Below, in pieces: positions 7,182 through 30,615 of a stretch of 64,000 bases of DNA. The notes below the pieces were generated by a model that was given only the letters and a program-made list of their open reading frames with translations, did no database searches and was not told the DNA's origin. Both the position numbers and the translations under genes were made by a program. The DNA comes from an uncultured Fibrobacterota bacterium (GTDB lineage: Bacteria > Fibrobacterota > Chitinivibrionia > Chitinivibrionales > CAYFVL01), in NCBI GenBank assembly GCA_964419255.1, contig CAYQOU010000010.1, positions 10,032 through 74,031 of the forward strand, in the 5' to 3' direction. How positions within the stretch are numbered: the stretch's first letter is position 1; each line of letters starts with the position of its first letter.

Positions 7182-7329
7182 ACCTGCATTGTGCGGTTCT
7201 GAGTGGATGATTCGCCCAATCCCTTAAGGGCAGAAAGGTTGGAGTAGTCGTGCGGAATACCCTCTGTGGTATTTTCGACATTGCTGAAGCCCGGGATTCC
7301 CTGTGCCCTGCAGAATGGTATTGTAATTC
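7182..7329 (+). repeat. Intergenic repeat element, copy C
   Basis: Starts immediately after the stop codon at 7181: 'acctgcattgtgcggttc...cattgctgaagccc...cagaatggtattgtaattc'. It aligns along its length with the copies at 19052 and 30616. Confidence 0.75.
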
Positions 7330-7398
7330 TGTATATTGTATTTTGTGACTGCAGTCTGAGTCTATACTGAAAAACCTTTTTATACCAGAAAAACAATC

Positions 7399-9836: not shown

Positions 9837-10178
9837 TTACCCTATAGCGTCATTTCCTTCTTCGCCGGTTCGGATCCGGATACATTGCGGCAAATCGAAA
9901 ACAAAAATCTTTCCATCTCCGATGTTTCCTGTCCGTGCCCCCTTAATAATCGCATCAATTGTCGGCTTTACATATGGTTCATTAACCGCGATTTCCAGGC
10001 GCACCTTCTTCAACAGGTTTACCTCGATAACACTACCACGATAACTTTCGGTGTATCCGGCCTGCTGACCGCATCCGATAACATTGGTGACGGTCATTTT
10101 TCGAATTTCGGCGTTAAACAGAGCCTGCTTTACATCAGGCAACTTATTTGGTTGTATTACTGCAACGATCATTTTCAT
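9837..10178 (-). CDS. glnK: PII nitrogen regulatory protein GlnK
   Basis: 113 aa. T-loop '[13 protein letters not shown]' retains the Tyr. C-terminal '[11 protein letters not shown]...IRIRTGE'. It lies 36 nt downstream of amtB. Confidence 0.9.
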
Positions 10179-10214
10179 GTTATTTCGCTCCTTATTAACT
10201 GTTTATAATCCGGC

Positions 10215-12927: not shown

Positions 12928-13290
12928 TTCAGGAGACGACGTTACACATTTTTGTGTTTGTCGACAGAGGCCGACAAAAGGGACTTACGCAAGTCCGGAA
13001 AACCTGGGATAGCAAAAAAACGGTAGAGCAGAAAAAAAAGAAAACAGTTGGAGCACTCTGATAGATAGTTGATTTAGATAGTTGATTTAGCTCAACAGCC
13101 CCTCACCACCCTTACCAGTCACCCGTGAGACTGAATACCAATCCAAGAAAGCGGTCAAATCCATTCTCGCAAAGAACTATTCGCGACAACAGTAACATGT
13201 GTGAGGGATATATATTTATAGAGTTATGACTGAGGCAGCTGTATTTTTTATTACATGTATACACCAATACACGCAAAAACTCACAAAATC

Positions 13291-15828: not shown

Positions 15829-15895
15829 GGGCAAAGAGATGTATCATACCCAAGATGTAATAGCCGTTTAGCCAACTGCGTAATTTTGCCCGCAC

Positions 15896-16882
15896 TTATA
15901 TCCGAAGATTCTGACACATTTTATCATCGGCGGGCGTGACTTCGACAACACTGTTGATATCACTGTGTCGTATTTGTACCCGTGCCACTTTACTGTTTCG
16001 GGCTTTTGAGTATCTTGCCACCACTGCGGCCGCTATTTGGATATCCTGCTCGGCAGCATCTCCATTAGCTATTCCCAACGGTCCTTCAATATCCGCCATC
16101 TGAAAACGGAAATCACTTGTGCGAACAAGCTTATCCATTATCTCGTTTTCCCGGTGATCTCTGCCCACCACTACCCGCGTCCTGGGAGATATTCTGAAAT
16201 GCCTCCCGTATGCCAGAAGAGAAAACTCCACGATATCGAAGTCGGCTTTATTTTCCCTGAGATCTTCAAACCGTCTACCGGTGGTTTGTTCCGTCAGAAG
16301 ACATCCTCCCGCGGGAGTCGCATGGATAAGTCCATATTTGCGGGCATATGCAAACTGTTCTTTCCTTCCTCTGCCGGAAATGGCCAGAAGTTTCTCCCGA
16401 TCAACGATACCATCCCTCTCTGCGGTTGTTGGAGGAAGAAGCCTGGCACTCAGGGGACGCAGAAGCAGCCCTTTCAATCCGGAGCGCCTTTCCACGCTAA
16501 ACATGCTGTCGCGGCGCTGAGACATGGGTCTCTGACCGACAACTTCCCCGGTTGCAATGAAAGAAGCTCCGCTCTCGTCCATGATCTTTTTTGCTTTTTG
16601 TAAACGATGGATTCTGCAGTCTACGCATGGATTTGCGTATCTACCATAGCCAAATTGCGGATTCTTCACCATACAGAGAATTTCAGCCCCCTCCTCCTCT
16701 ATACGCAACGGGACATTCAATGCCTCGGCAAAATGCCTTACGGCTTCGTGCTCTTTACCGATTCCGGATTCAAACGGCAAAACGAAATGAAGAGCCGTAA
16801 CATCGAGCCCCTGAGACTGCAATATGTGTGTCGCGATGACGCTGTCCAGACCACCGGAGAACATTACCAGACATGAAGACAT
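15896..16882 (-). CDS. PP-loop ATP pyrophosphatase (ThiI/MnmA-like tRNA thiolation family)
   Basis: 328 aa. PP-loop 'VMFSGGLDSV' and 'CVDCRIH...ATGEVVGQRPMSQ'. Its start overlaps the asnS stop (TAATG). Confidence 0.5.
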   Translation of the reverse strand: MSSCLVMFSGGLDSVIATHILQSQGLDVTALHFVLPFESGIGKEHEAVRHFAEALNVPLRIEEEGAEILCMVKNPQFGYGRYANPCVDCRIHRLQKAKKIMDESGASFIATGEVVGQRPMSQRRDSMFSVERRSGLKGLLLRPLSARLLPPTTAERDGIVDREKLLAISGRGRKEQFAYARKYGLIHATPAGGCLLTEQTTGRRFEDLRENKADFDIVEFSLLAYGRHFRISPRTRVVVGRDHRENEIMDKLVRTSDFRFQMADIEGPLGIANGDAAEQDIQIAAAVVARYSKARNSKVARVQIRHSDINSVVEVTPADDKMCQNLRI

Positions 16883-18276
16883 TAAAATTCCGCCTTTTTG
16901 GGATAGCGGGGAAACGGTATGACATCCCGAATATTCTGCATACCGGTGACAAAAAGCAGCAGTCGTTCGAATCCAAGTCCGAAGCCTGCGTGCGGGGCTC
17001 CCCCATATTTACGTAATTCCAGATACCACCAGTAATCCTGCTGGTCCATGTTGTTTTCTTTTATTCGCGAGACAAGCTTGCGGTGATCATCCTCGCGTTC
17101 CGAGCCGCCAATCAGCTCACCGATCCTGGGCACAAGCACATCCATGGCACGAACGGTTTTGCCATCATCATTGGATTTCATGTAAAAAGCTTTTATTTCT
17201 TTGGGATAATCATACACAATCACCGGTTTCTTGAAGACCGTTTCAGTAAGAAATCGTTCATGCTCTGTTTGTAAATCGGCCCCCCAGTGTATTGGATACT
17301 CAAACATGTCCCGCTTCTTTTCTAAAATGTCAATCGCCTGCGTATATGTCACTCTCTCAAACGTATCAGATGCCACCTGCTGCAGAGTGCTGATCACCGT
17401 TTTATCCACCCGGGAATTGAACAATTCCAAATCTTGCCCGCACCGCTCAAGTGTCCAGGAGGCAAGATACTTGACGAATTTCTCCGCCAATTCCATATCC
17501 TGGAAAAGATCACAGAATGCCATCTCCGGCTCTATCATCCAGAACTCAGCCAGATGCCTGCTGGTGTTGGAGTTTTCCGCACGAAATGTTGGTCCAAACG
17601 TATACACCCGTCCAAGTGCCATCGCGAAGATCTCAGCCTCCAGCTGCCCGCTGACAGTCAGATATGCGGGCCGGCCGAAGAAATCTTCAGAATAGTCGAC
17701 CTTCCCCTCTTTTGTTCTGGGCGGCTGATCATGATCAAGAGTGGTCACCCGAAACATCTCCCCCGCTCCTTCACAGTCGCTTGCGGTAATAATCGGCGTG
17801 TGTATATAGTGAAAACCATGCTGCTGAAAAAATGAGTGCACCGCAAAGCTCAACGAACTTCTGATACGGCTGACCGCTCCCAAAGCATTAGTGCGCGGTC
17901 TCAGGTGTGCGATATCCCGAAGAAATTCAAAACTGTGTCGTTTTTTCTGAAGCGGATAGTCCTGAGGTGCTATGGTATACACCTTTAGAGATTTGACATG
18001 AAGCTCGACGGCCTGCCCTTTTCCCTGGCTTTCTGTAAGTATACCACTCACTCTGATACTGCTTCCCGTGGTCAGAGGCTGTACGGAGGTGCTGTACTCG
18101 GGTAAAGAGCTGTCGACAATCAGCTGCAGATTGGCCAGACTGGAGCCGTCGTTGATTTCAAGAAAAGAAAACCCTTTGGCATCCCGTTTGGTCCGAACCC
18201 ATCCATGTACCACCACCTCCTGCTCCGAGGGGGATTCGCTCAGCAACTCGAGAACTGTCTTTGAAGATGTCACCAT
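16882..18276 (-). CDS. asnS: Asparaginyl-tRNA synthetase
   Basis: Class II motifs and the AsnRS C-terminus 'GGSEREDD...[22 protein letters not shown]...IPFPR'. Start chosen at Met16 (AAGGAA RBS). The ORF extends to 18321. Confidence 0.9.
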
Positions 18277-18439
18277 GTGAATTGTTCCTTTATGTACCAT
18301 AGTCCGGCAAAACCGGAGCAAAAAAAAAGGACTAATAATTTATTATACGGGCTTTCCTCTTCTTCCCATATCTCTTGTCCAGCCCGCTAAACGAAAGGTG
18401 ACAGAGATACGGAGAATAAGTGTCAGACAAAACATCCAA

Positions 18440-18961
18440 TTATTCAGCATAGTAGTCTATGAGTGTATGGGGATTGTATTGTCCCACTTTTTCCCTGTAA
18501 TTAAGAAAAGGTAGACCGATAATGGAAAAAACCCCAACCACCTCCCCCTTACGGCGTTGGATCATCTTTGCAACAGCTTCAATCGTTCCACCGGTGGCGA
18601 TCAGATCATCGATAATCAGCCACCGTTTGCCCTCGGGAACATCGTCGATATGCATCTCCAGTGTCGCCTCACCATATTCCAGTGCATAACTTTCCTGAAG
18701 CGTCCTACCGGGCAGCTTGCCTTTCTTCCGGGCAAGGATAAGCGGTAACTGCTTACGTATTGCAAAGGGAGATCCGAGTATGAACCCCCTGCTTTCAATG
18801 GCGATTATGCCATCGATCGATTCATTGGAGTAGATTTCCACCATCTTGTCTATTACGTATGTTAATGCCTGGGGATTGGAAAAAATGCTGCACACATCAT
18901 AAAAAAGAATGCCCGGTTTTGGAAAATCGGGTACCTTCCGTATCACCTTGTCCAGATCCAT
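18440..18961 (-). CDS. apt: Adenine phosphoribosyltransferase
   Basis: 'VPDFPKPGILFYD' and PRPP-binding loop 'LIIDDLIATGGT'. Start at Met18 of the listed ORF (MDLDKV...). Confidence 0.9.
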   Translation of the reverse strand: MDLDKVIRKVPDFPKPGILFYDVCSIFSNPQALTYVIDKMVEIYSNESIDGIIAIESRGFILGSPFAIRKQLPLILARKKGKLPGRTLQESYALEYGEATLEMHIDDVPEGKRWLIIDDLIATGGTIEAVAKMIQRRKGEVVGVFSIIGLPFLNYREKVGQYNPHTLIDYYAE

Positions 18962-19051
18962 AACTGTTCGCTCCCTTGCGAAAAGAGTCAAAAAAAGAAA
19001 AAAAACCACCATTCGTCGGTTACAAGAAACGATTTTTATTGGGTATAATAT

Positions 19052-19213
19052 ACCTAAATTGAGCAGTTCCGCGTGGACGATCCGCTCAAATCACTCACGG
19101 GCACAAAGGATTGAAGTAAATCGTGTGGAATAACCTCTGAGGGTTTTCCAGGATTGCTGAAGTCCTATGCACCAGTATGTTTGCGGAATCGCCTCGAGAG
19201 AATCGCACGATTC
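19052..19213 (+). repeat. Intergenic repeat element, copy A
   Basis: 'acctaaattgagcagttc...ccaggattgctgaagtcc...cgagagaatcgcacgattc'. Roughly three quarters of positions look identical to copy C by eye. Confidence 0.75.
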
Positions 19214-19284
19214 ACGGTATATATAATAATAAATGGGTTTTCTCCCATAATAAAGCACAGTAAATTAGTGAATCGTTTTAGCAG

Positions 19285-20226
19285 GTGTTTAAATTTATGA
19301 CAGTTTTTTGTAAACGCGGATTAGCTGTGTGGATATTCGCGATAATGACACTCTTTGTTAACTGTTCTGTTAATTCATGGGCCAAATACAAGGTCGCCGA
19401 CGCGCTGAGCAGTAACGATAATCAGGCATTTGTTACCGATGACGATCCGGAGTTGGTTGGAGAGGCAATACCCTTTACCATCAAATCGTATGAATCTCTT
19501 CTGGCCGAGATGCCCGATCACACAGGACTTCTCACGACGGTTGGTAAACTTTACGGCAATTATGCCTACGGATGGATTCAGCTGCCCGCCGACACCCTGC
19601 CCGACAGCCAGTATAAACGGCAGACTGCTATGATGAAGAGGGCAAAGAAGTTCTACCTGCGGGGACGGGAGTATATCCTGCGAGCGCTTGAAATCAATCA
19701 CCCCGGCTTTCGCTCCCTGTTGGATGAGGGAGACGTCGATTCGGCCATAGCACTAACGGAGAAAGGCGACACCACCCTTCTGTATCTTGGGGCGCTTTGC
19801 TGGTCGGGTGCATTTCTGAGTGATAAATTCGATCTTTCTATGGCCGCCACGATGGACATACCGGTGGCAATGATGAATCGCGTACTCGAATTAAACCAGC
19901 AGTATGGTGATGGCGCAGTGCACGAATTTTTTATTAATTACTATGGGTCACTTCCCGAATCCAAAGGAGGCGGTGAGAAGAAAGCGCGAGAGCATTTCGA
20001 GAAAGCGGTGTTTCTCAGTGACAGCGCCAAGGCATCACCATATGTATCCCTGGCTCTGGCGGTAAGCGTTAAAACCCAGAATGTAGAACAATTTAAGGAG
20101 CTGCTAAATAAGGCCATTGCTGTAGATACAGATAAAAACCCACACTATCGCCTGGCCAATGTTCTGACTCAACGAAAGGCTCGATGGTACCTGAATAATA
20201 TCGGTGAATTCTTTCTGATTGATTGA
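19285..20226 (+). CDS. TPR-like periplasmic protein resembling the TRAP-transporter-associated TatT family
   Basis: 313 aa with a hydrophobic N-terminus. The family assignment comes from my memory of TatT-like sequences ('...LYGNYAYGWIQ...YLRGREYILRAL...HEFFINYYGSLPES...') and is not verified. Confidence 0.45.
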   Translation: MFKFMTVFCKRGLAVWIFAIMTLFVNCSVNSWAKYKVADALSSNDNQAFVTDDDPELVGEAIPFTIKSYESLLAEMPDHTGLLTTVGKLYGNYAYGWIQLPADTLPDSQYKRQTAMMKRAKKFYLRGREYILRALEINHPGFRSLLDEGDVDSAIALTEKGDTTLLYLGALCWSGAFLSDKFDLSMAATMDIPVAMMNRVLELNQQYGDGAVHEFFINYYGSLPESKGGGEKKAREHFEKAVFLSDSAKASPYVSLALAVSVKTQNVEQFKELLNKAIAVDTDKNPHYRLANVLTQRKARWYLNNIGEFFLID

Positions 20227-20322
20227 GGATTCAACACACCGGCACTTCGCATTTTTTGGACAGTCAGCTCCAGAGGCCACCTGCGGTTTCAGATGGGACA
20301 ATGCCGGTTATTTCCTGTTTCA

Positions 20323-20769
20323 TTAAAAATCCTGCAACCGGACATCTTCGGCCAACCGATCATCGATCTCAAGTGTTCGCTGATATTGGCCAATCGAGGT
20401 AAAATGTATATAAAACGTATTTTCCGGAAGAACATCGGAAAACATATCGGCCCATTCGATCAAACAAACCCCTTCTCCTTCCATGTACTCGTCAAATCCG
20501 ATTTCTATCAGCTCATCGGGGCTCCCCAGACGATAGAAATCAAAATGATGAATCGGAAAACGAACAGTTTCATATGAGTTGACCAGCGAAAAGGAGGGAC
20601 TGCGCACACCTGCGTTTTCATCGAAAAAATGCACGAAACCACGAACAAACTCGGTTTTTCCCGCTCCAAGATCTCCAATTAGCCCAATCACATCTCCCGG
20701 CTTGCAAGCTGCGGCAATTCTGGCGGCACATTCACGAGTCTGTTCTAATGATTGTATGTGTACTTTCAT
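20323..20769 (-). CDS. tsaE: tRNA t6A37 biosynthesis ATPase TsaE
   Basis: P-loop 'GDLGAGKTEFVRG', 'SPSFSLVNSY', 'HHFDFYRL'. Its start overlaps the upstream gene's stop (ATGA at 20766-20769). Confidence 0.85.
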   Translation of the reverse strand: MKVHIQSLEQTRECAARIAAACKPGDVIGLIGDLGAGKTEFVRGFVHFFDENAGVRSPSFSLVNSYETVRFPIHHFDFYRLGSPDELIEIGFDEYMEGEGVCLIEWADMFSDVLPENTFYIHFTSIGQYQRTLEIDDRLAEDVRLQDF

Positions 20770-22310
20770 GATTTGTTCCCACATGGCCTTAACACTGCAA
20801 GCGGCACGATGGCTTCTTCCATCGAAATACCCCCATACCGCCAACCGTTCTGATTATTTCCAACGGTGTTCTCGGTTTTTTGGCTCGCAATAAAATAGTA
20901 GTTTTCTTTCAGAAAGACACAGGTCGTTTCAGGAGAAAAGGAAGGTAGCCGGAACCGGTGAGGCTCTGCCACAAAGAGAGCGTGTCTTTCATCACAGGAG
21001 ACACTTTCGCCGAAACGATATCGGTGTGGCATTTTTTCCGCTGAATCTCCATAGATTTCAGTACCCCGTGTGCAAAACACGCTACCATTACCTGCGGTAA
21101 GAATGACGGTACACTGCTGAGTATTCAGCGTCTGCAGAAGACGAAAAATGGTCGAATGGTTGAATCGATTGGCGAACATGGTGCGGGAATCCTCATCCGA
21201 TACTACAGGATGCAAGGAAAATGGTTGACTCAACGCGGTAATCTCAGACAAATTTACAAGTACCGGGATGATGCTCCCCTTTTGGAGAGCCCTGATGACA
21301 TTGTGTTCATCAAATTTCTTCTCGGTACGGAATATTGTGGTCTGTTCACCAAACCCCGCATTTCGAAGATTTTCTATCAGAAGCTTTTCCTCAATTTTTT
21401 CTTCAGTGACGATCTCAGGATTATCCGCTCGCCAGAAGCCAGAATAGTTATTTTCGATATCCATCGGGTAAAGGCCGGAAAGCAAGGAATACCGGGTAAA
21501 CGCTGGTGATGTGGGCAGAATGGAATAGGAGTGCATTCGGGTGATTTCGAAATATTTCCTGAGTATATGTTCGACTATCATGTATTGATCCAGTCGCATA
21601 CAATCAAAAACGACCAAAACTATTTTTTCACCTTCTTGCGCTCTAGGGAAAACAGCGGTTTTGAGCACATCGGGAGTCAAAAGCGGCGCATCACTGGCTC
21701 CGTGTATCCATCGCAGATAATTTTCCGAATAAAAACCCGAAAAAATCGCGTTTGCATCCGATTTCTGTCCTGCATGAATCTGACGTATACTCTCATTTTG
21801 GACATTTTTCAGCTGAAAATCCCACCGCGTCAGCTCCTCATACACTCCCGCCCACTCGCCGGTGGTAAGTGGTTTCTGCAAAACGGTACGAATTTGGGAA
21901 TAATCGCGCATAAAATTCTGGGATGCCCGGGAAGAAACCGCATGCCTGGTAGGAAGCAGCTTTTTGCATACCGCCAGAAAAGGGGCAGCTGTAACCGGCT
22001 TGTCCAAATATCCGTCGATCAGAGCTTTAAAGGTTTTTTCCAACTGCTGCTCTTCCATCCTTGCCACTAACACTACCGGTAGATCCCGATTGTGAAGTTT
22101 TATTTCCTCGGCTGTTTTCAGGCTGTCTTTATCGGACATTTGTTTATCGAGCAATACAAGATCATAATCCTGTCTCTTGTCTTTGAGCATCTCGAGAGCT
22201 TCATCACTGGTGGTTACAGGAGTAATGCTGAAGCCGCGCGTTTCCAGAAACATGATAAGCGAACGCTGGTATTCGATTTGATTATCTATCCACAACACAC
22301 TTTTACGCAT
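20766..22310 (-). CDS. Response regulator receiver fused to a PglZ/alkaline-phosphatase-like domain (PorX-like architecture)
   Basis: 514 aa. CheY-like N-terminus ('VLWIDNQ...DLVLLDKQMSD...YLDKP'), then a ~390-aa region with 'VLVVFDCMRLDQY' and C-terminal 'WRYGGISMEEAIVPL', typical of PglZ. Confidence 0.6.
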   Translation of the reverse strand: MRKSVLWIDNQIEYQRSLIMFLETRGFSITPVTTSDEALEMLKDKRQDYDLVLLDKQMSDKDSLKTAEEIKLHNRDLPVVLVARMEEQQLEKTFKALIDGYLDKPVTAAPFLAVCKKLLPTRHAVSSRASQNFMRDYSQIRTVLQKPLTTGEWAGVYEELTRWDFQLKNVQNESIRQIHAGQKSDANAIFSGFYSENYLRWIHGASDAPLLTPDVLKTAVFPRAQEGEKIVLVVFDCMRLDQYMIVEHILRKYFEITRMHSYSILPTSPAFTRYSLLSGLYPMDIENNYSGFWRADNPEIVTEEKIEEKLLIENLRNAGFGEQTTIFRTEKKFDEHNVIRALQKGSIIPVLVNLSEITALSQPFSLHPVVSDEDSRTMFANRFNHSTIFRLLQTLNTQQCTVILTAGNGSVFCTRGTEIYGDSAEKMPHRYRFGESVSCDERHALFVAEPHRFRLPSFSPETTCVFLKENYYFIASQKTENTVGNNQNGWRYGGISMEEAIVPLAVLRPCGNKS

Positions 22311-22793
22311 TACCAGGCCCCTTTACATACCAATCTAAGGTTTTTCCGCAGATCAGTTCCTTTGCCCACTGCACCGGAGGAATCCCCACGTGATTAAAAC
22401 GTATTTGCATATTCATTTCCCTATACTGTATACATTTTTTGATTGATGACACCTAAATTGTGCCAATCGCCGCAAGAGAATCGTATAATCTAGGTGGATA
22501 TAAATATACGTAGTATCTGTTCAGAATAATCACAATACCGTGTCATTCCACCCTCGGCGGAAGCTTGCCTCCTGTTTTGCTGAAACTTCAGAGGACTTTA
22601 TGTACGGAGAGAGGAGTATGGTATGACATCCGCGAAGTACTTTTCTGAATAGAAACCACCTAAGTCTCAGAGAGTCGGGGATTTTGCCCCGCCCGTTCAA
22701 TTAAGTATATTTGTTTCACCGTAAATATATAGTGTATGATAATTTTCGCCTTGGTACACCACTTTTCTTCCGCGGTAAGATTACCGTTTTCTG

Positions 22794-23912
22794 TTGATTG
22801 TGAAAACACCTGTCATTCTTGAACAAGCAGCTGCATTTACCACCTTCGGCAATATAGATAAGACGGTTACCTGTCTGCTTGAAGGAAGAAGCGGGTTGGT
22901 GCCCGGACCGTTTTTCGGTGTATCCTCCGCCTGCGCTCCCTTCTCTGATGAGGCGCTACGGGATATCCGTCATGCCTGCCACGATCTGACAGGACAGTTG
23001 GATATGTCATGCTTTGGTAAAAAAAATGATCGGACACCGTTTCTTTTTTGCGCGGCCAAAGGCGATCTGAGCTTTTTCAATACCGGGAACTCTTCTAAAC
23101 TACTTCAGCAAATATCACCGTTTCTTCATGCCCAGGCAGAAGAAGTATGTGCTGTAACCGGCATTCGCCCAACCAGGTGCTTGACAATTTCCAACGCCTG
23201 TGCATCGGGAGCAATAGCCCTGGAGGTGGCTACTGAGCTTTTAGAGGTGGGACAGGCAGACCGGGTCATATTGTTCGGTTTCGATTGCATCAGCAAGTTC
23301 GTTCTTACCGGTTTTGATGCCCTGCAGGCTCTCTCATCAACCGGTGCGCGTCCCTTCGATGCCTCCCGCGATGGGCTTTCATTAGGGGACAGCGCGGTAT
23401 TTGCAATTCTCAGCAGAAGGACTCCACGCAAAGGAGATATACTTATTGCCGGAACAGGTTCCTCGAATGACGCTAATCACCGTACAGGCCCGTCTCGTAC
23501 CGGCGATGGACTGCATGCCGCGGCGGCTACGGCGATGAGAGGAGCGCAGTTAAAAAATCACCAGATCGGTTTTGTGAAATGTCATGGAACGGCAACGATG
23601 TATAATGATGCCATGGAGGCCAAGGCGATATACCGTATGTTTGGTGATGCATGTCCGCCATGCGTGTCTTTTAAAGGAGCAATAGGACATACCAGTGGTG
23701 CAGGATCTCTACTTGAAGTGGTCCTTGCGGCGGAGATAATCAGACGAAGAAAGGTTCCCCCGACCGCACATTACAGCAGCCACGGCGTGGAAGAGCCAAT
23801 AGCAGTCTCTTCCCTGCCCAGGGAGTTGGAAATTCCCTCGGCACTCTGCCTTTCGGCAGGTTTCGGCGGCATGAACGCTGCGGTGGTCATACGGGAGTAC
23901 ACTCATGAATAG
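22794..23912 (+). CDS. Beta-ketoacyl-ACP synthase (KS, Cys-His-His type), cluster gene A
   Basis: 372 aa with a TTG start. 'ISNACASGAIAL' (Cys), 'CHGTATMYND' (His), 'GHTSGAGS' (His), 'GFGGMNAAVVI'. Confidence 0.8.
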   Translation: MIVKTPVILEQAAAFTTFGNIDKTVTCLLEGRSGLVPGPFFGVSSACAPFSDEALRDIRHACHDLTGQLDMSCFGKKNDRTPFLFCAAKGDLSFFNTGNSSKLLQQISPFLHAQAEEVCAVTGIRPTRCLTISNACASGAIALEVATELLEVGQADRVILFGFDCISKFVLTGFDALQALSSTGARPFDASRDGLSLGDSAVFAILSRRTPRKGDILIAGTGSSNDANHRTGPSRTGDGLHAAAATAMRGAQLKNHQIGFVKCHGTATMYNDAMEAKAIYRMFGDACPPCVSFKGAIGHTSGAGSLLEVVLAAEIIRRRKVPPTAHYSSHGVEEPIAVSSLPRELEIPSALCLSAGFGGMNAAVVIREYTHE

Positions 23913-24687
23913 GCACGTATACGTCCATAGCTTCGCCGAGATAAGTCAACGGGGAATTATCAGCCCCACAAAGAAACTTTCATGGGATGCAGACCAGCAA
24001 GATGTGTTTTCCATCAAACGCGAACAGGTCCTGGAGAAGCCTTTTCCCGTATTTGGGAAACTGCAGCCGCCGGAAAAGCTTTCCTTCAGCCTGGCGGCGT
24101 TAATGCTTTCGGGTGACAATACTCAGCACGACGAAAACACCGGTATCTGTCTTGCATCTACGTTTGGTTCCTTCTCTACTGACTGTAAATACATGGAAAC
24201 TGTTTCAAGCGGCTTTGCCAGTCCGGCATATTTTTCCGCTACTCTTCCTTCATCACCGGTTGCGGAGGTTGCTATCAGTTTCAAACTTAAAGGCCCTGAC
24301 AGGGTGATTGCCGGCGGAAACAATCCTGGAATAGATGCTCTTGATTTGGGTATCAATGCACTTTTATGCGGGAAAACATCCCGTATGATGATACTCATCG
24401 TAAACGCCATCGATCCGAAAGATATTTGGTCGTTAAGCAGTTACGATAAGAAACGCTCTCTACCATGCGGATTTGGACTCCTGCTTGGCAGCCATACGCC
24501 GGATTCAGCACCGGTGGCAACCCTGCGATTAGAGGGAACGTTTATGAAGACAGATTCGGACATTCCACCTGGAGAAACTTATTTTACCGAAATAATTTCG
24601 GCCCTGTATTCAAATCGTTCGGAAACGATCAGTATTCGTACTCCCGATTATTCAGGAAATGCATTTGTCACCAAGGAAATGAAATGA
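23905..24687 (+). CDS. Short KS-N-terminal-like protein without the catalytic Cys (CLF-like partner), cluster gene B
   Basis: 260 aa. '...AISFKLKGPDRVIAGGNNPGIDAL' places Asn at the position aligned to the KS active-site Cys (8th residue after GP). It overlaps gene A by 8 nt. Confidence 0.6.
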   Translation: MNRHVYVHSFAEISQRGIISPTKKLSWDADQQDVFSIKREQVLEKPFPVFGKLQPPEKLSFSLAALMLSGDNTQHDENTGICLASTFGSFSTDCKYMETVSSGFASPAYFSATLPSSPVAEVAISFKLKGPDRVIAGGNNPGIDALDLGINALLCGKTSRMMILIVNAIDPKDIWSLSSYDKKRSLPCGFGLLLGSHTPDSAPVATLRLEGTFMKTDSDIPPGETYFTEIISALYSNRSETISIRTPDYSGNAFVTKEMK

Positions 24688-24944
24688 ATGAAAAGCTGTT
24701 GGAGAATTTGAAAAAGCAGATTATAGAAACATTGAATCTCAACGACGTGAGTCCGGAAGATATCGATTCAGATGCCCCCCTTATCGGTGGCGATCTGGGT
24801 ATCGACTCGATTGATACGCTGGAGTTGCTGGTGCTTCTTGAACGGGAATACGGTGTCACTGTTCCCGATGTGAATGTTGGACGCGAGGTGTTTTCTTCTG
24901 TTCGCAATCTTGCCAAATACATCGCGGAAAACAAAGCTGACTGA
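24684..24944 (+). CDS. Acyl carrier protein
   Basis: 86 aa. 'LIGGDLGIDSIDTLELLVLLEREYG' carries the phosphopantetheine Ser in the DS motif. Its ATG overlaps the previous stop (ATGA). It is hidden inside the listed ORF 24465-24944. Confidence 0.8.
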   Translation: MNEKLLENLKKQIIETLNLNDVSPEDIDSDAPLIGGDLGIDSIDTLELLVLLEREYGVTVPDVNVGREVFSSVRNLAKYIAENKAD

Positions 24945-24945
24945 T

Positions 24946-26133
24946 ATGACTGCGATGCCGATAACAGGTTTAGGGGCAGTCTGCGCGGCTGGTGATTCAG
25001 TCGAATCATCCATGCCCGCCATTATTCGTGGTGAGGACGGCCTCACCCCCCTTCGCCTTTTTGACAGCGGACTGAAACAGGTACCGTTGTGCGGACAGGT
25101 TGAGGATTCTGAAACCTGCCGCAGATTTACCAAACACACCAACCGCACGACAGCTTTCGGTGTGATGGCCGCAGAGCAGGCTCTGAAGTCGTTTGCCGAT
25201 CGAAGCGGATTACGTCTGGGGTTAGTTTTGGCAACCACTGTTGCCGGCATGCGGCGATCGGAGCGATTTCTAAACGCTTACCGAAAGGATCCTCAACGGA
25301 TATTTCAGGCCGGCGTCGATCTTTCAGAACACGAGCCGACAGTGGTCTCCGGTACGATCGCCCGTCATTTCAAGGCTGAGGGATTTCATACAATATCAAC
25401 AGCCTGTTCCACTGGACTTCATGCGATTGGTATGGCCAAGCGCCTCCTGGAACAAAACCACTACGATCTGTGCCTGGCGGTGGGCACCGATGCTCTGTCG
25501 CTTCTCACGGTAAGAGGATTCGCCAGTTTGATGCTTATAGACTTTGACGGTTGCAAACCCTTTGATAAAAAGAGAGTAGGCATTAGTCTGGGAGAAGGCG
25601 CGGGAGCTGTTTTGATGGCCAGACCGGAGGTTGTAAAAACATACCGGATTCCGGTTCATGCCTATGTGAGCGGCTGGGGAGCGTCGGCAGATTGTTACCA
25701 CATGACCGCCCCTCATCCGCAAGGCAATGGGGCAAGAAAAGCGGTGATGAGGGCTCTTGAAGAGTCGAAACTTTCACCTGACGACATCGACTTTATTGCG
25801 GCACACGGTACTGCGACTCCAGATAATGACAGTGCGGAGATTCAGGCGATGAAAACTCTGTTTGCCTCCCTCCCCCCGTTTTGCTCCCTGAAACGGACAT
25901 TAGGACACACTCTTGCTGCATCTGGCATTTTGGAAGCGGTTTTTGCGATTCGAGCAATGGAGCATGGGATAGTACCGCCAACCGCAGGATTTATGCACAC
26001 AGATGATAATATCGGAGCTGAGCCTTCCCCCGGTGAAAAGAAGGATATCAATAACCTTTTAAAGAATTCGTTTGGATTTGGCGGCAATAATGCTGCTGTC
26101 ATTTTTTCACGTCGCGCCTCAAACCAAGAGTAG
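24946..26133 (+). CDS. Beta-ketoacyl-ACP synthase II-like (KS), cluster gene D
   Basis: 395 aa from Met25 of the listed ORF. 'ISTACSTGLHAIG', 'ADCYHMTAP', 'AHGTATPDND', 'LGHTLAASG', 'NSFGFGGNNAAVIF'. Confidence 0.85.
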   Translation: MTAMPITGLGAVCAAGDSVESSMPAIIRGEDGLTPLRLFDSGLKQVPLCGQVEDSETCRRFTKHTNRTTAFGVMAAEQALKSFADRSGLRLGLVLATTVAGMRRSERFLNAYRKDPQRIFQAGVDLSEHEPTVVSGTIARHFKAEGFHTISTACSTGLHAIGMAKRLLEQNHYDLCLAVGTDALSLLTVRGFASLMLIDFDGCKPFDKKRVGISLGEGAGAVLMARPEVVKTYRIPVHAYVSGWGASADCYHMTAPHPQGNGARKAVMRALEESKLSPDDIDFIAAHGTATPDNDSAEIQAMKTLFASLPPFCSLKRTLGHTLAASGILEAVFAIRAMEHGIVPPTAGFMHTDDNIGAEPSPGEKKDINNLLKNSFGFGGNNAAVIFSRRASNQE

Positions 26134-26942
26134 TGAGAATGTATCTGCCGATTATCTCAACGTACATGCTTGAGCCGGACTCACATCAAGAGTGGGAGAA
26201 ACAAATTCCCGCATCCATGAAACGTCGTGATCCCAGGATCTGGCAAATGGCATGGTTTGCGGCGCAAGAGGCGATAGAAAAGGCCGGTTGTCAGCCACGC
26301 TCAGTCATCGTAGCAACCGCATTGGGTGCTTTAGATGAGACATGCCGTTATCTGGACAATGTATTTGCAACGGGTTTTGGGTCCCCGAAAAATTTCATCG
26401 CATCCGTTCATAACAGCATGGCGGGTAAGCTTGCCATGGCATTTTCAGTACAAGGACCGAATCTAACCATGTGCGAGGGGCAAAACTCCTTTGCCTCCGC
26501 CTTGATTGCCGCTTCACTGCTTACACCGCACGACTTTCCGACATTGTTGCTAAGCGTGGATGAGAATATTGGCATTCTCCAGGATGTGCACCCACATCTG
26601 TCTGACGATTGCCGGCCATGGTTATCTGAAGGGTGGCAGGATTGTGCAATCGCATTCGTGCTTGGGGCTGCCGATGATCAGGTGGCAAAGCCTGCCCTGT
26701 CGGCTGCGGGAATATGTCCGGTGGATAGGACAACGCCCCCACAGGAGGCCTGCATTTCGCTGGTGCAGAACAGGGGCTGGCAAACCGATCGGTTGCTGCC
26801 GCTATCTGAAACAAGTGTCAGCTTTATCTCCCCGGCAAAGTGTGCGTATTCAAAATTTATGGAGAAAATATCGGGGACCACCCTTATTGGCTCCTATTCG
26901 CCATCTTCATCTGGAGCAGCAGTTACAGCATTATGTCAGTGA
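26133..26942 (+). CDS. Short KS-N-terminal-like protein with Gln at the active-site position (CLF/KSQ-like), cluster gene E
   Basis: 269 aa. 'FSVQGPNLTMCEGQNSFASAL' places Gln at the position aligned to the KS active-site Cys. Confidence 0.6.
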   Translation: MRMYLPIISTYMLEPDSHQEWEKQIPASMKRRDPRIWQMAWFAAQEAIEKAGCQPRSVIVATALGALDETCRYLDNVFATGFGSPKNFIASVHNSMAGKLAMAFSVQGPNLTMCEGQNSFASALIAASLLTPHDFPTLLLSVDENIGILQDVHPHLSDDCRPWLSEGWQDCAIAFVLGAADDQVAKPALSAAGICPVDRTTPPQEACISLVQNRGWQTDRLLPLSETSVSFISPAKCAYSKFMEKISGTTLIGSYSPSSSGAAVTALCQ

Positions 26943-27733
26943 CTCCTTTTCACCTGTGGATTGTATCAGCCGCCCTCTCCTGTCTGGTAAGAGGTAAAAG
27001 CAGGTCCAGCCGATACGCAAGCAACCTGCTTCTCGCGGCTCATACCGCTGCATTTGTGCGCGGAATTTTCGATATGAGGAGTCAGTTTTTTTGCCCGGTA
27101 CTCTGGCGGGGAAATCCGAATAGCAACAGTATCGCACTTACATTCGATGACGGCCCCGATCCGATGGTGACTGAAAATGTATTGGATTTACTGGCAACCT
27201 ACAGGTTAAAGGCCACCTTTTTCGTTATTTCCGCCAGAGCACGGCGACATCCCCTGCTTCTGACCAAAACGATTCAGGCTGGGCATACGATCGGCTGTCA
27301 TGACCTGACACACGCGCCCACATCCAATTTCCGGCGACGTGCACAACTGGTACGAGACATCTCGGAGGCAAGAAATATCATTTATGATATCACCGGGTTT
27401 ACCCCCCGACTCTATCGGCCGCCTGTCGGGTTAATGAACCCTCATATACAACCTGCTCTTACCCAGCTTGACATGGATTGTATCGGGTGGAGCAGATCGA
27501 CACGGGAGGCCGGTAATCGCAGACTAAAGAAAATTTTGAAACTTGATACCCTGGCAGGTCCGGGGGAAATTGTTCTTCTACACGATTCAATGCCAAAAAT
27601 TGCTTACAGGGAAGTATTCCTTGAAAAATTAGAAAAGCTCTTCGCCTCAATACAGAAGAAGAATTTGCGCGCAGTTGCGGTTAATACGCTTCTGAATATT
27701 CCGGCGTACTCCATGAGATTTGATGACTTTTAA
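26933..27733 (+). CDS. Membrane-anchored polysaccharide deacetylase (NodB homology domain), cluster gene F
   Basis: NodB motifs are intact: 'LTFDDGPDP', 'GCHDLTHAP', 'LYRPPVGL'. The N-terminal segments are hydrophobic. Start at Met32 of the listed ORF, with a 10-nt overlap with gene E. Confidence 0.8.
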   Translation: MSVTPFHLWIVSAALSCLVRGKSRSSRYASNLLLAAHTAAFVRGIFDMRSQFFCPVLWRGNPNSNSIALTFDDGPDPMVTENVLDLLATYRLKATFFVISARARRHPLLLTKTIQAGHTIGCHDLTHAPTSNFRRRAQLVRDISEARNIIYDITGFTPRLYRPPVGLMNPHIQPALTQLDMDCIGWSRSTREAGNRRLKKILKLDTLAGPGEIVLLHDSMPKIAYREVFLEKLEKLFASIQKKNLRAVAVNTLLNIPAYSMRFDDF

Positions 27734-27747
27734 CAGGATTGATAATC

Positions 27748-28356
27748 ATGCTTCGTTTTACCCTCCTCTTGATGCTCTCTATCAGTGCAGTTGCTCAGAC
27801 TGCTGAGGTCAGTGACAGTTTGCTGCAGTTCATTGCGGGCAAGCTCAAACAAAATCGTCACTTCACCGCCCCATTTACTCAGAAACGATATATGGCAATG
27901 TTTGAGAAGCCTTTAATATCCGAAGGTACAATAAATTACTTATATCCTGACAATATTCGCATCGAGTATGTCACTCCTTTTGAATCGGTCATTCTTTTAA
28001 CGGAGAATAGTATCAACAGGTATCGGATAGAAAATGGTAAATACATCAAGCAACCATCTCTTGAGATAGTAGCAAAAGCAATCACCAAAGAGATTATCAG
28101 ATACGTTTCCGGTGAGTTTATTTCAAATGGCCCCTATCGCATTACCTCCGCCTCCGGAGCCGAAAGACATTTTATTCTTACACCTACCAATGCCGCAGTA
28201 AAGGCTATATTCGACCGTATCGAGCTGTTCTTCCCTGCGGATCCGACTTATGTTCAGAAGGTAAAACTGGTGGAAACAAGCAATGATTCAATAGTTATCG
28301 AACATGAACCGCCCTCTTTTGAACCGGTGCCCGATTCGGTTTTTTCTATCAGGTAG
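27748..28356 (+). CDS. LolA-like outer-membrane lipoprotein carrier family protein, cluster gene G
   Basis: Signal peptide 'MLRFTLLLMLSISAVAQT'. 'FTAPFTQKRYMAMFEKPLISEGTINYLYPDNIRIEYVTPFESVILL' follows the LolA-like pattern. Confidence 0.6.
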   Translation: MLRFTLLLMLSISAVAQTAEVSDSLLQFIAGKLKQNRHFTAPFTQKRYMAMFEKPLISEGTINYLYPDNIRIEYVTPFESVILLTENSINRYRIENGKYIKQPSLEIVAKAITKEIIRYVSGEFISNGPYRITSASGAERHFILTPTNAAVKAIFDRIELFFPADPTYVQKVKLVETSNDSIVIEHEPPSFEPVPDSVFSIR

Positions 28357-28360
28357 CATA

Positions 28361-28927
28361 ATGAAAATTACCACCACTATTGTCTCTATTCTGTTGCTCT
28401 CGGGGATTTTGTCGAGCTGTACCACTGTCCTGAATGGACAGAAAAAAAAGTGCATCCCGCCGGAGTTTTCTCGACATAACTGGTCGGCAAGCGGATTCTG
28501 TGATGTTTGGAAGGGTAAAAGCCGGATACGAACACGGGCTCGAATCGAAATGAATGGTACGGAGATGAGTTTTGCCCTTCTGGATGAATTCGGGATGCCC
28601 CTGGCGGCGGTAAACGCCAGCCCTGAAGGATATTCAGTCCGGCGAGCTTTTCCCCCTCTGAACAAAAAAATAATCTTGCAAGCGGCTGAGGGATTATACG
28701 CATTCGGACTGATATCACTGTTGAGTAAACCTGTGTCCGCCAGGCCGGTTTCACCGTCAGTCGAATTGACCCGGAACAGTTGCTTCACCCTTTACAACTC
28801 TGATAAATTGGATTCGGCAAAAATCATGAGCCTCAGGCACAGCTCGAGTCTTTATAATTTGGATGCCGGGTGTATTCTAGTTAAAGGGAGTAGGGATACG
28901 GTATTTTCCTTTACTCCTTCCGATTAG
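28361..28927 (+). CDS. Small lipoprotein of unknown function, cluster gene H
   Basis: 188 aa. 'MKITTTIVSILLLSGILSSC' is a signal peptide with a lipobox Cys. Its 3' end overlaps the convergent lnt by 17 nt. Confidence 0.5.
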   Translation: MKITTTIVSILLLSGILSSCTTVLNGQKKKCIPPEFSRHNWSASGFCDVWKGKSRIRTRARIEMNGTEMSFALLDEFGMPLAAVNASPEGYSVRRAFPPLNKKIILQAAEGLYAFGLISLLSKPVSARPVSPSVELTRNSCFTLYNSDKLDSAKIMSLRHSSSLYNLDAGCILVKGSRDTVFSFTPSD

Positions 28928-30527
28928 CAGCTTTACCGACCGGGGGATTCGAAGAGAAACGCATGAAAAGTCGAATCGAAGTGGCCAGTAGTAAAAACAC
29001 CAGTGAAAGCCAGACAAGCCAATCACCATACCTGGTGTAGATAGTTTTTACCGATGAAAGTGGAACGGACACCACCAGTGAATCACGAGTAAACAAGCCG
29101 GTTCTTCCCAGTTCACGTCCAAACTGGTCTGCTGCAAGAGAAATGCCCGAATTGGCGCTTCTAACGAGGGATACACCGTTTTCTATGCTTCGCATACGAG
29201 CCATAATGGCATGCTGGTGAGGAGCCGTAGATCTCCCAAACCACCCATCATTAGTAATATTGACCAGCAAATTGGCCCCTTCTTGGACCCTTTTGCGAAC
29301 CAACGCAGGAAAAATCATCTCATAGCAGATAAAGGGAGCCGCCATTATATCCTTTCCGGCATTAAACACTACCGGCTCTGTCCCCCGTGAGAAATCGGCA
29401 CTGCCTATATTCAAACGACTCAGAATCGGAAACTGGCTCTTGAAAGGAATAGATTCGCTTCCGGGCACTAACTGCATCTTGTAATAAGGTATGAACCGGT
29501 CGGTCGCCCCTGCAATCATATAGGCCGTATTGAATACATCGTACTTTTTGGCGACATCTTCTGCGTACTCCCAGTGGAGAGAGCCTGTGATGATAGGAGT
29601 GCCCACCCTATCAGCCCAGGAAGCTACCCGATCGCGGATATGAGGACGTTTTAGCAAATAGCAGTATATTGCGCTTTCGGGGAGGACAATCAGGTCGAGT
29701 GAATCATCCCTTTGCTCTACAATCATCTTTTCCACGACATTCAGAGAACTATCCAGAGAGTTATTTCCCCAGTTAGTCTGATCCAGATTTATCTGGAGCA
29801 CCGAAACATTGATTCGATCGTTTTCCATCGGCTCAATTTTTATCATTCCCCAGAAATAGACACCCGCAAGAAAAGTGGCAAATACCGCAAGATGCAACCA
29901 TTTCTGCGCGATAACATTGCTTAGCCAGTAGCTGCGTAATAATTCGAAAATCAGTATGTTGCCCAAAACAATCAGAAAGGAGAGCAGATATACCCCTCCG
30001 ACAGAGCCAAGCTGCGCAAGAGGAGATATTGGCACAAACACATATCCAAGATTCATCCACGGAAAGGCAAGATCCCCGAGTGTACGAAAGTATTCGATGA
30101 GAATCCAGACGGAAGGAAACAGAAGCAAATACAGCCGGGGAAACGATTTGTAAACGAGCCGGAACAACATTCCTATTCCCAGATAATACAATGCCACAAC
30201 GGCTGTTGTAAATGCCAGCCCAAGAAGAATAAGATGCTTGAGTCCCTCCACCCCTACATTGCTGATCCAGTAAAACTGACTCAGTGATGCTGATATGCCG
30301 AAAAGGTATACATGTAAAACCGCCCTTTTTGCAGGTTTCTGCAGGGCAAAAATCATCATCGGAACAAGCAAAATGAAAGAAAGCAGGGGAAACCCCGCAA
30401 ATAGCCAGTGGGTTTCGTGATTGAATGGGGGCAAAGAGACAGCAAAAAGTAAACCGGATAGAAGCGGTACATACCAGCGGTTGGATTGTTTATACCAGCT
30501 ATATAGTAGATTAATCAGTTTTTTCAT
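28911..30527 (-). CDS. lnt: Apolipoprotein N-acyltransferase
   Basis: Multi-TM N-terminal half plus a CN-hydrolase domain: 'LIVLPESAI', 'YYKMQLVP', 'APFICYEMIFPALVR' (Cys), 'LVNITNDGWFG'. The start could be 30569. Confidence 0.85.
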   Translation of the reverse strand: MKKLINLLYSWYKQSNRWYVPLLSGLLFAVSLPPFNHETHWLFAGFPLLSFILLVPMMIFALQKPAKRAVLHVYLFGISASLSQFYWISNVGVEGLKHLILLGLAFTTAVVALYYLGIGMLFRLVYKSFPRLYLLLFPSVWILIEYFRTLGDLAFPWMNLGYVFVPISPLAQLGSVGGVYLLSFLIVLGNILIFELLRSYWLSNVIAQKWLHLAVFATFLAGVYFWGMIKIEPMENDRINVSVLQINLDQTNWGNNSLDSSLNVVEKMIVEQRDDSLDLIVLPESAIYCYLLKRPHIRDRVASWADRVGTPIITGSLHWEYAEDVAKKYDVFNTAYMIAGATDRFIPYYKMQLVPGSESIPFKSQFPILSRLNIGSADFSRGTEPVVFNAGKDIMAAPFICYEMIFPALVRKRVQEGANLLVNITNDGWFGRSTAPHQHAIMARMRSIENGVSLVRSANSGISLAADQFGRELGRTGLFTRDSLVVSVPLSSVKTIYTRYGDWLVWLSLVFLLLATSIRLFMRFSSNPPVGKAANRKE

Positions 30528-30615
30528 AAGCAATGAGAAAATAGTTTGCGCAAAAATGGAGGACCTCATTCATTACGAATTAAAGGAAAAAAAGTGCTCT
30601 GGGAAAAAGATTAAT

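Follow-up and report, generated by a model that had tools for sequence, protein, structure and literature searches.

An eight-gene operon of an uncultured Fibrobacterota bacterium as a candidate stand-alone copy of the central module of flexirubin-type gene clusters

What does an operon make that encodes two pairs of condensing enzymes, a single carrier protein and a deacetylase, and that stands alone among housekeeping genes? The question is raised by a 64-kb stretch of DNA from an uncultured Fibrobacterota bacterium (64,000 nucleotides [nt], hereafter the window), in which eight open reading frames (ORFs), here named A to H, lie on the plus strand between positions 22794 and 28927. They encode, in this order, a ketosynthase (KS), a short protein resembling a chain-length factor (CLF), an acyl carrier protein (ACP), a second KS, a second short CLF-like protein, a CE4 deacetylase, a LolA-like protein and a lipobox lipoprotein. 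On the homology and colinearity with flxI-flxR, in which the match of H is weak, on the intact active-site residues and on the conservation across the phylum, we conclude, with a probability of roughly 0.6, that flexirubin-type aryl-polyene (APE) lipid clusters and the operon have a module in common, flxI-flxR, which is central in the former and stands alone in the latter. That the block stands alone is its unusual feature.

Gene content and order of the operon

The flexirubin cluster of Chitinophaga pinensis contains, in order, flxI (KS), flxJ (methyltransferase) and flxK (halogenase), flxL (a short "condensing enzyme"), flxM (ACP), flxN (KS), flxO ("condensing enzyme"), flxP (polysaccharide deacetylase), flxQ (LolA) and flxR (small hypothetical protein) (PMC3992019, Table S4). 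The homologues of F. johnsoniae have nearly consecutive accession numbers, consistent with this order (PMC3992019). A tblastn search with F led to the same block on plasmid pAUEa of Aureispira anguillae, where it is flanked by genes for a phosphopantetheinyl transferase (PPTase), a tyrosine ammonia-lyase (TAL), FabG, a KS, an ACP and a thioesterase. Each of the eight operon proteins found its best Aureispira match in its positional counterpart (Table 1), and the gene order in the window is that of C. pinensis Table S4 and of pAUEa. A preliminary description of the locus had called the operon an orphan with a resemblance to APE clusters. The resemblance is confirmed, by matches of ApeO, ApeC, ApeE and ApeL type as well as by the flx colinearity, but "orphan" does not hold: with all eight genes colinear with flxI-L-M-N-O-P-Q-R, the operon is a reduced variant of a known cluster and not an orphan pathway.

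Both A and D contain the Ketoacyl-synt N and C domains of Pfam. The preliminary description had noted their Cys-His-His, and a full catalytic set of Cys, His, Lys and His is kept in every A and D orthologue inspected. Among solved structures, the KS and CLF-like proteins come closest to the ApeO and ApeC chains of a Xenorhabdus heterodimer (6QSP), and the best PDB match of KS-A is the ApeO chain, 6qsp_A. Compared with the proteins of E. coli CFT073, A scored best against ApeO (127 bits) and so did D (171 bits, versus 159 for FabF); for both, ApeO outscored FabF, FabB and ApeR. On the fabF equivalog TIGR03150 the two reached 154.4 and 258.6 bits, below the cutoff of 493.75, and the NCBIfam AmcF and AmcG models gave sub-threshold matches to A, D and B. 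A neighbour-joining tree placed all A and D orthologues with ApeO, FlxI and FlxN in one clade with 100% bootstrap, outside of which lay E. coli FabF, FabB and ApeR as well as FlxC; the KSs thus do not fall within a FabF/FabB clade, in agreement with the earlier view that they are not housekeeping enzymes. KS-A and FlxI grouped together, again at 100%. Where FabF has its gatekeeper Phe (F400), all KS-A orthologues have Ala and Aureispira FlxI has Ser, while KS-D keeps Phe; the change in KS-A may reflect a different substrate entry for the A:B pair.

The description of the two short proteins, B of 260 amino acids (aa) and E of 269 aa, as CLF-like partners proved sound. E matched Ketoacyl-synt_2 (Pfam, 5.6e-11), its best PDB match was ApeC (6qsp_B), and it matched E. 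coli ApeC at 3e-8; a tblastn search of plasmids with E returned faint Streptomyces matches only. B has no Pfam family. Its AlphaFold2 (AF2) model, with a predicted local distance difference test score (pLDDT) of 82, retrieved ApeC (6qsp_B, 2.4e-9) first and the ishigamide CLF (6kxd_B) second in a fold search; this CLF, Iga12, was the second-best match of B by sequence as well as by fold. B is 30% identical to E over 67 aa and is a distant paralogue of it. Proper alignment places no catalytic Cys in either protein, and B has no catalytic His. The aligned residue in this genome is Asn in B and Gln in E, as had been reported, but its reading as a hallmark has to be dropped. The column is variable among B orthologues; among 13 Fibrobacterota sequences of E it holds Gln in 8, His in 3, Asn in 1 and Pro in 1, and it is Asn in FlxO and Arg in ApeC. 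Because these residues vary among orthologues, they are no conserved KSQ-like hallmark. By sequence, each pair has the composition of an ApeO:ApeC-type heterodimer, an active KS beside a truncated thiolase-fold partner that lacks the triad.

The dedicated single ACP between the two pairs, also part of the preliminary description, can now be typed as ApeE-like: C has a PP-binding domain (Pfam), scores 71.4 bits on NCBIfam PRK09184, just over the cutoff of 70, and is 45% identical to E. coli ApeE versus 35% to AcpP, and 48% to Aureispira FlxM. F matched Polysacc_deac_1 (PF01522) with 100.3 bits (1e-28; cutoff 23.1). Alignment confirmed that its NodB motifs are complete, since the CE4 motifs TFDD, HxxxH, RPP and LLHD are intact in F and conserved in all orthologues, most of which also have two N-terminal hydrophobic helices; on the NodB equivalog it reached 108 bits, below the cutoff of 240. 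The deacetylase had been regarded as added to an APE-like set of parts. However, close relatives of F (39 to 49% identical) terminate full APE-type clusters, FlxP is a deacetylase of flexirubin-type clusters, and ArcN is annotated as a polysaccharide deacetylase in the xanthomonadin-type cluster of Azoarcus. Since such an enzyme is a regular member of flexirubin and xanthomonadin clusters, F is no addition. Two of the close relatives (P0124 and P0126, 42 to 49% identical) are fused to an Sfp-type PPTase, and one of these two closes, in locus L056, a complete E. coli-type APE cluster with genes for a KS, a CLF, an ApeP-like dehydratase (DH), a ketoreductase (KR), another KS, a lysophospholipid acyltransferase (LPLAT), a methyltransferase, LolA_3 and an MMPL protein.

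G and H agree with the secreted LolA-like protein and the lipoprotein of the preliminary description. With its cleavable signal peptide, G matched LolA of Pfam at 38.4 bits (cutoff 23.6); its best NCBIfam model was LolA2_flexi, "flexirubin biosynthesis/transport protein LolA2" (81.3 bits, E 5.8e-23, below the cutoff of 125). It also matches the ApeL gene of a Cupriavidus APE cluster, and a homology search with it returned 16 orthologues from Fibrobacterota and none from Bacteroidota. At the end of the F. johnsoniae block lie LolA2 (Fjoh_1085) and, adjacent to it, the signal peptidase II lipoprotein LolB2 (Fjoh_1084), which are always found in flexirubin loci (PMC11885536). H carries the lipobox L-S-S-C and belongs to a rare, fast-evolving family, with 9 relatives among 1.84 billion representatives. 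Neither Pfam nor NCBIfam has a family that matched H, any of its orthologues, FlxR or the unknowns of APE clusters. Alignment of the H set with the ApeN set by hhalign gave a probability of 2% in a first run and of 40%, with an E value of 3e-4 and a consistent register, when a deeper H alignment was used.

The eight genes are packed as tightly as the preliminary description had it, according to the ORF coordinates and to an independent gene call on the source contig, which returned the same eight genes. A and B overlap by 8 nt, B and C by 4 nt, D and E by 1 nt and E and F by 10 nt; a single base separates C from D, 14 nt separate F from G and 4 nt G from H. The GTG start of E is backed by orthologues that align from residue 1. 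From the overlaps of A with B and of D with E, it seems likely that the two members of each pair are translationally coupled.

Table 1. Features of the operon, of the window and of related loci. E values are for the best Aureispira match of each operon protein.
Sequence	Feature	Position	Strand	Assignment and remarks	Aureispira counterpart (E value)
Window	A	22794..23912	+	KS-A, FlxI-type ketosynthase; gene caller start at 22800	FlxI (2e-47)
Window	B	23905..24687	+	Truncated thiolase-fold CLF-like partner of KS-A, FlxL position; no Pfam family	FlxL (5e-9)
Window	C	24684..24944	+	Dedicated ACP, ApeE/FlxM type; PP-binding	FlxM (6e-25)
Window	D	24946..26133	+	KS-D, ApeO/FlxN-type ketosynthase; Ketoacyl-synt N and C	FlxN (4e-65)
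Window	E	26133..26942	+	ApeC/FlxO-type truncated CLF partner of KS-D; Ketoacyl-synt_2	FlxO (7e-12)
Window	F	26933..27733	+	Predicted membrane-anchored CE4 (NodB-fold) deacetylase, FlxP position; Polysacc_deac_1	FlxP (4e-32)
Window	G	27748..28356	+	Periplasmic LolA-like carrier, LolA2/FlxQ/ApeL type; signal peptide	FlxQ (1e-9)
Window	H	28361..28927	+	Small lipobox lipoprotein, LolB2/FlxR/ApeN position; no family	FlxR (9e-4, weak)
Window	Upstream intergenic region	22311..22793		Presumed promoter region; 483-nt gap to divergent PglZ response-regulator gene	
Window	lnt (apolipoprotein N-acyltransferase)	28911..30569	-	TIGR00546, 303.9 bits (cutoff 132.9); convergent, outside operon	
Window	PglZ-domain response regulator	20766..22310	-	Divergent upstream of operon	
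Window	Ammonium transporter gene	4556..5995	-		
Window	Ammonium transporter gene	10215..11558	-		
Window	Nitrogenase cluster	50836..62454	+	Complete-looking	
L006	B12-binding radical SAM gene	7218..8759			
L016	B12-binding radical SAM gene	737..2110			
L019	B12-binding radical SAM gene	7374..8747			
L020	B12-binding radical SAM gene	7391..8764	+		
L022	B12-binding radical SAM gene	7417..8835			
L016	Aromatic amino-acid ammonia-lyase	3..434			
L019	Aromatic amino-acid ammonia-lyase	3710..5419			
L020	Aromatic amino-acid ammonia-lyase	5518..7158	-		
L022	Aromatic amino-acid ammonia-lyase	5502..7118			
L014	Small hotdog ORF	13788..14186	+	After the deacetylase	
L018	Small hotdog ORF	19196..19558	+	Before lnt	
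L007	264-266 aa protein	8042..8842	+	Directly upstream of KS-A	
L023	264-266 aa protein	8023..8817	+	Directly upstream of KS-A	
L009	IS200-type Y1 transposase	8715..9176	+	Between deacetylase and LolA-like gene	
L009	Group II intron reverse transcriptase	258..1550	-	Upstream of cassette	
L022	Second lipid- or PKS-like gene set	13022..20297	-	Immediately downstream of cassette	
L056	PPTase-fused relative of F	10001..11392		Closes complete E. coli-type APE cluster	

Conservation and surroundings in the Fibrobacterota

Proteins of the B family are rare: a set of 5.8 billion proteins contains only 25 clusters of them at 90% identity. When each GTDB species was represented by one genome, the family turned up in 17 Fibrobacterota loci (Chitinivibrionales, Chitinispirillaceae, Fibrobacteraceae and "Fibrobacter sp."), and other phyla gave only faint actinomycete CLF matches. 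Of 18 distinct Fibrobacterota loci, 15 span the core of KS-A, B, ACP, KS-D and E, and all 15 keep its order. As the same gene order recurs in loci with different flanks, the arrangement is not a matter of chance. The expectation that the gene set would be conserved as a unit is thus correct for the five-gene core, and the periphery is variable: F follows the core in most loci, with no deacetylase gene adjoining it in the Fibrobacter-type loci L019, L020 and L022, G is found in the window, L006, L009 and L013, and an H-like lipoprotein in the window, L006 and L013. The Chitinivibrionales relative L009 has an IS200-type transposase inserted between the deacetylase and LolA-like genes and a group II intron reverse transcriptase upstream of its cassette. 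The two Chitinispirillaceae loci L007 and L023 encode, directly upstream of KS-A and in the same direction, a 264-266 aa protein with a signal-peptide-like N terminus and no Pfam family.

The 17-nt overlap of H with the convergent lnt was seen as described. Besides the window, L009, L014 and L025 have a convergent lnt adjoining their cassettes, and in L018 the gene is found at a distance of 6 kb; it is absent in L006, L007 and the Fibrobacter-type loci. Because the gene is convergent and its adjacency lineage-specific, we place it outside the operon and regard the overlap as synteny (5 loci), not as part of the system.

Five relatives have a co-directional gene for a B12-binding radical S-adenosylmethionine (SAM) protein immediately before KS-A (Table 1). 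The copy of L020 passes TIGR04072, "lipid biosynthesis B12-binding/radical SAM protein" (410.7 bits, cutoff 360). The anammox protein Kuste2803 is likewise described, in the literature on "ladderane" clusters, as a B12-binding radical SAM protein. Divergently upstream in L016, L019, L020 and L022 lies an aromatic amino-acid ammonia-lyase gene. The lyase scored 494 bits on hutH (cutoff 539) and 485 bits on the FlxA TAL model (cutoff 700), and its motif NQDVVSMG, with the Gln of the TAL or phenylalanine ammonia-lyase (PAL) type and not the Glu of histidine ammonia-lyase, is identical to that of Aureispira FlxA. L014 and L018 each contain a small hotdog ORF (120-132 aa) with a FabA/ApeI-like "GHFP..P.IP" motif and sub-threshold matches to Pfam FabA (E 0.019) and to ApeI-like models. 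Immediately downstream of the L022 cassette, on the opposite strand, is a second lipid- or polyketide synthase (PKS)-like gene set with an EmrB-type major facilitator superfamily (MFS) transporter, a FabD-like protein (below cutoff), an ACP-sized ORF, a KS, a 3-hydroxyacyl-CoA dehydrogenase-like protein and a FabH-like protein. This KS was considered as a housekeeping FabF and rejected, being only 39% identical to E. coli FabF and sitting in the FabD/FabH/ACP/MFS set; it may belong to another specialised cluster.

The neighbours of the operon in the window are housekeeping genes. Those upstream encode LptD, a class II aminoacyl-tRNA synthetase, a phosphoribosyltransferase, a TAtT-family protein, TsaE and the divergent PglZ response regulator; downstream follow lnt, DUF116, an XPB-type helicase and PurA. 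A promoter and terminator scan found promoter-like matches at chance level in the upstream region, and an Rfam search around the operon gave zero matches. In seven loci of the Chitinivibrionales type, a member of the PglZ family (family 4) is again found upstream, usually in company with a histidine-kinase-like gene (family 5) and a gene for a 427-505 aa protein (family 7). Elsewhere in the 64 kb are genes for ammonium transporters and regulators, a nif cluster and further core genes. The nif cluster, preceded by a GAF/sigma-54 activator, comprises nifH, two P-II genes, nifD, nifK, nifE, nifN, a GNAT gene and a nifB-like gene, a radical SAM gene with a Nitro_FeMo-Co domain; by its gene content, this metagenome-assembled genome looks diazotrophic.

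Proposed pathway, alternatives and meaning

If the operon is a copy of the flxI-flxR module, KS-A would pair with B and KS-D with E as ApeO:ApeC-type heterodimers, and both pairs would lengthen a chain carried by ACP C, using malonyl-ACP in decarboxylative condensations. Unlinked genes, either FabD, FabG and FabZ or unlinked ape-type KR and DH, would provide for malonyl loading, phosphopantetheinylation, ketoreduction and dehydration. If the chain is reduced and dehydrated but its enoyl groups are left as they are, a conjugated, polyene-type acyl chain would result, or one specialised in another way. Priming may proceed by malonyl-ACP decarboxylation instead of from an aryl starter, which is plausible because the window has no TAL or ligase and E has Gln at the Cys position; an aryl starter is plausible for Fibrobacter-type loci. 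The lipid that accepts or bears the chain would have an N-acetylhexosamine head group, which F would probably de-N-acetylate, and G would hand the finished lipid to the LolB2/ApeN-like H for insertion into the outer membrane. The suggestion of the preliminary description that a dedicated acyl chain is sent to the outer membrane is retained as the best reading.

Several points weigh against this proposal. Among the Pfam-matched long ORFs of the window and by tblastn, no KR, starter-activating enzyme, acyltransferase, glycosyltransferase, thioesterase or MMPL exporter was found, nor was a ligase or cyclase among the Pfam-matched long ORFs. The 64 kb hold no fab, ape or flx gene outside the operon, no homologue of ApeR, ApeI/P, ApeQ or ApeM, no DarA/DarB-type genes that we could see and no TIGR04072-type radical SAM gene. 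Neither the TAL FlxA nor the CoA ligase FlxY is encoded there; a TAL/PAL-like lyase occurs only beside the four cassettes named above. The absence of most of these enzymes from the locus had been reported before and stands, with one reservation: no DH was recognised in the window, but a small hotdog DH could have been missed, since the hotdog ORF of L014 is itself sub-threshold and a few window ORFs have no family match. Most of the chemistry would thus have to be borrowed, or is absent. In addition, G and H are missing beside most Fibrobacterota cassettes, the Gln of E is not conserved, and KS-D does not group specifically with FlxN in the neighbour-joining tree, although FlxN is still its best match. 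The homology of H to LolB2/ApeN (DUF3261) is no more than suggestive, and a single-sequence AF2 model of H was unusable (pLDDT 44). The substrate of the deacetylase is purely what we infer, and we know of no product for the flxI-flxR block even in flexirubin producers. On the other side, the block is conserved on its own throughout the phylum without priming, reducing, tailoring and export genes, which suggests a functional unit.

A bolder version, doubtful but worth stating, is that the cassette, with its five to eight genes, could be a self-sufficient minimal pathway to a new class of outer-membrane lipid in Fibrobacterota. The two KS:CLF heterodimers and one ACP would then build an acetate-primed, non-aryl, conjugated or unusual chain with only housekeeping FabD, FabG and FabZ borrowed; the chain would be joined to an amino-sugar lipid de-N-acetylated by the CE4 enzyme, and in Fibrobacter-type lineages the B12 radical SAM protein would remodel it further. 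The corresponding block of flexirubin clusters would make a second, so far unseen lipid and not the pigment itself.

A logic like that of NodFE and NodB, in which F frees an amine on an existing envelope molecule with N-acetylglucosamine or N-acetylgalactosamine (GalNAc), for instance a glycolipid or a lipid A precursor, and an unlinked N-acyltransferase, conceivably Lnt, attaches a special acyl chain that the KS/CLF pairs and the ACP make with the help of housekeeping enzymes, would suit the sub-cutoff NodB score and complete CE4 motifs of F, the occurrence of NodB beside NodA among the plasmid relatives of F (tblastn) and the adjacency of lnt in 5 loci. NodE and NodF, a specialised KS and ACP that borrow enzymes of fatty-acid synthase (FAS) for polyunsaturated acyl chains, offer a precedent. 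We nevertheless hold this unlikely: the operon contains no acyltransferase or glycosyltransferase, lnt is convergent and a neighbour in one lineage only, no deacetylase gene lies beside the cassette in L019, L020 and L022, and the homologues of the block as a whole are the genes of a pigment-lipid cluster and not nod genes. A "ladderane-cluster-like" lipid, whose unsaturated chain a B12 radical SAM protein (here unlinked) would methylate or modify, seems a long shot, as no such gene exists in the window or in Chitinivibrionales-type loci, the function of TIGR04072 is itself untested and the closest relatives of the block are flexirubin and APE genes. What speaks for it is the co-directional radical SAM gene of the five relatives with its TIGR04072 member in L020, the anammox clusters, which combine Kuste2803 and inactive FabF paralogues with deacetylase-like and lipoprotein-like proteins and whose FabF pair is KS/CLF-like, and, possibly, the two-chain KS entry 9s5h among the PDB matches of A, D and B.

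It is very improbable that the KS/CLF pairs build a poly-beta-keto chain that cyclises, as in aromatic, non-reducing type II PKSs. A KS, CLF and ACP without cis KR or DH do resemble a minimal PKS, E has its Gln, and the faint matches of B are to actinomycete CLFs; however, there is no cyclase or aromatase, the CLFs are truncated (260-269 aa) like ApeC and unlike the full-length act CLF, the KSs group with ApeO, the Gln varies, and a hotdog DH-like ORF and a TAL-like lyase lie beside cassettes of relatives. Scant credence is also due to a decaying, functionless remnant of a once-complete APE cluster. The absence of most full-cluster genes, the loss of G and H in many relatives and the transposase in L009 would be expected of decay, but all eight ORFs are intact, the catalytic residues of the KSs and the deacetylase are invariant across orthologues only 35-60% identical, and the order of the five-gene core is kept in every spanning locus, in several families of the phylum. 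A primary FAS, with the KSs as housekeeping FabF/FabB, was rejected on the NCBIfam cutoffs and the KS tree, and its probability is very small. The full catalytic set, an identity of ~30% to E. coli FabF and the lack of another fab gene in the window are set against a failed fabF cutoff, an ApeO-type clade with full bootstrap support, truncated inactive partners and an ApeE-type ACP; moreover, L022 has a more FabF-like KS, with FabD-, FabH- and ACP-like genes, beside its cassette.

APE and flexirubin clusters are among the most widespread families of biosynthetic gene clusters in Gram-negative bacteria. A flxI-flxR-like block of five to eight genes would be a small, tractable construct for learning what the unit makes, and it bears on what the deacetylase, LolA2/LolB2 and the second KS:CLF pair do in these clusters. 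It also extends APE-type lipid genes to the Fibrobacterota, fibre- and chitin-degrading anaerobes with poorly known envelope lipids, for which a full-text literature search found no description of such genes. Some lineages link the block to a TAL/PAL-like lyase and to the uncharacterised TIGR04072 radical SAM family.

Comparison with known systems

The celluxanthene pathway for the "yellow affinity substance" of cellulolytic anaerobes was considered and is unrelated, being an iterative type I PKS. Among highly reducing type II PKS pairs (ishigamide Iga11/Iga12, PDB 6KXD; cispentacin AmcF/AmcG), B resembles Iga12, but the ishigamide and cispentacin clusters are actinobacterial and have their own KR and DH, and the window proteins score far under the family cutoffs. 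With NodE, NodF and NodB of rhizobia the operon shares a logic, a specialised KS and ACP on top of housekeeping FAS together with a NodB-fold deacetylase, and not family membership: it lacks NodA and NodC, F misses the NodB cutoff, and the KSs here have CLF partners.

The anammox "ladderane" clusters (amxFabF heterodimer; Kuste2802-2805, Kuste3335-3352) have an active KS with an inactive FabF-like partner and a dedicated ACP and, like the operon, also hold deacetylase-like and lipoprotein-like proteins. According to recent work, the two anammox FabF proteins form a heterodimer of KS/CLF type, which decarboxylates malonyl-ACP for priming (bioRxiv 10.64898/2026.05.19.726425). However, the anammox partner is full length (~410 aa), and the sequence kinship is more distant than that to ApeO/ApeC and Flx. 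The only radical SAM ORF of the window, in contrast, is the nifB-like gene of the nif cluster, and there is no pathway radical SAM protein or SAM-methyltransferase.

The APE systems (E. coli CFT073 apeA-apeR, Xenorhabdus doucetiae) are closer. KS-D/E and KS-A/B are like ApeO:ApeC in sequence and predicted fold, C is like ApeE and G like ApeL, and H would do what has been proposed for ApeN, a DUF3261 lipoprotein. In the APE lipid characterised from Xenorhabdus, the polyene chain sits on a GalNAc-phosphoglycerol lipid, and ApeL and ApeN are the proposed export pair. An APE cluster encodes a single KS:CLF pair along with the FabB-like ApeR, two ACPs, the KR ApeQ, the DH ApeI/P, the ligase ApeH, LPLATs, the glycosyltransferase ApeJ, a thioesterase and the MMPL protein ApeM, but no deacetylase; the window has two KS:CLF pairs, one ACP and one deacetylase and none of the other components. 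From the APE core set (apeO, apeR, apeE, apeF, apeC, apeI, apeP, apeQ and apeM; Grammbitter 2020), only ApeO-, ApeC- and ApeE-like proteins are present.

The flx clusters of Bacteroidota (C. pinensis Cpin_1861-1870, F. johnsoniae and Aureispira pAUEa) have the same eight gene types in the same order. The pigment expected of such a cluster is yellow-orange, shifts its colour with KOH and is an ester of a dialkylresorcinol. Identities to the window proteins are only 20-48%, and the short partners differ in length, FlxO (~335 aa) being longer than E and FlxL (~190 aa) shorter than B. In Bacteroidota the block is embedded among genes for TAL, CoA ligase, KR, DH-like proteins, thioesterase, acyltransferase, a GT2 glycosyltransferase, an exporter and PPTase and is accompanied by DarAB for the resorcinol part, whereas the operon described here has only housekeeping genes around it.

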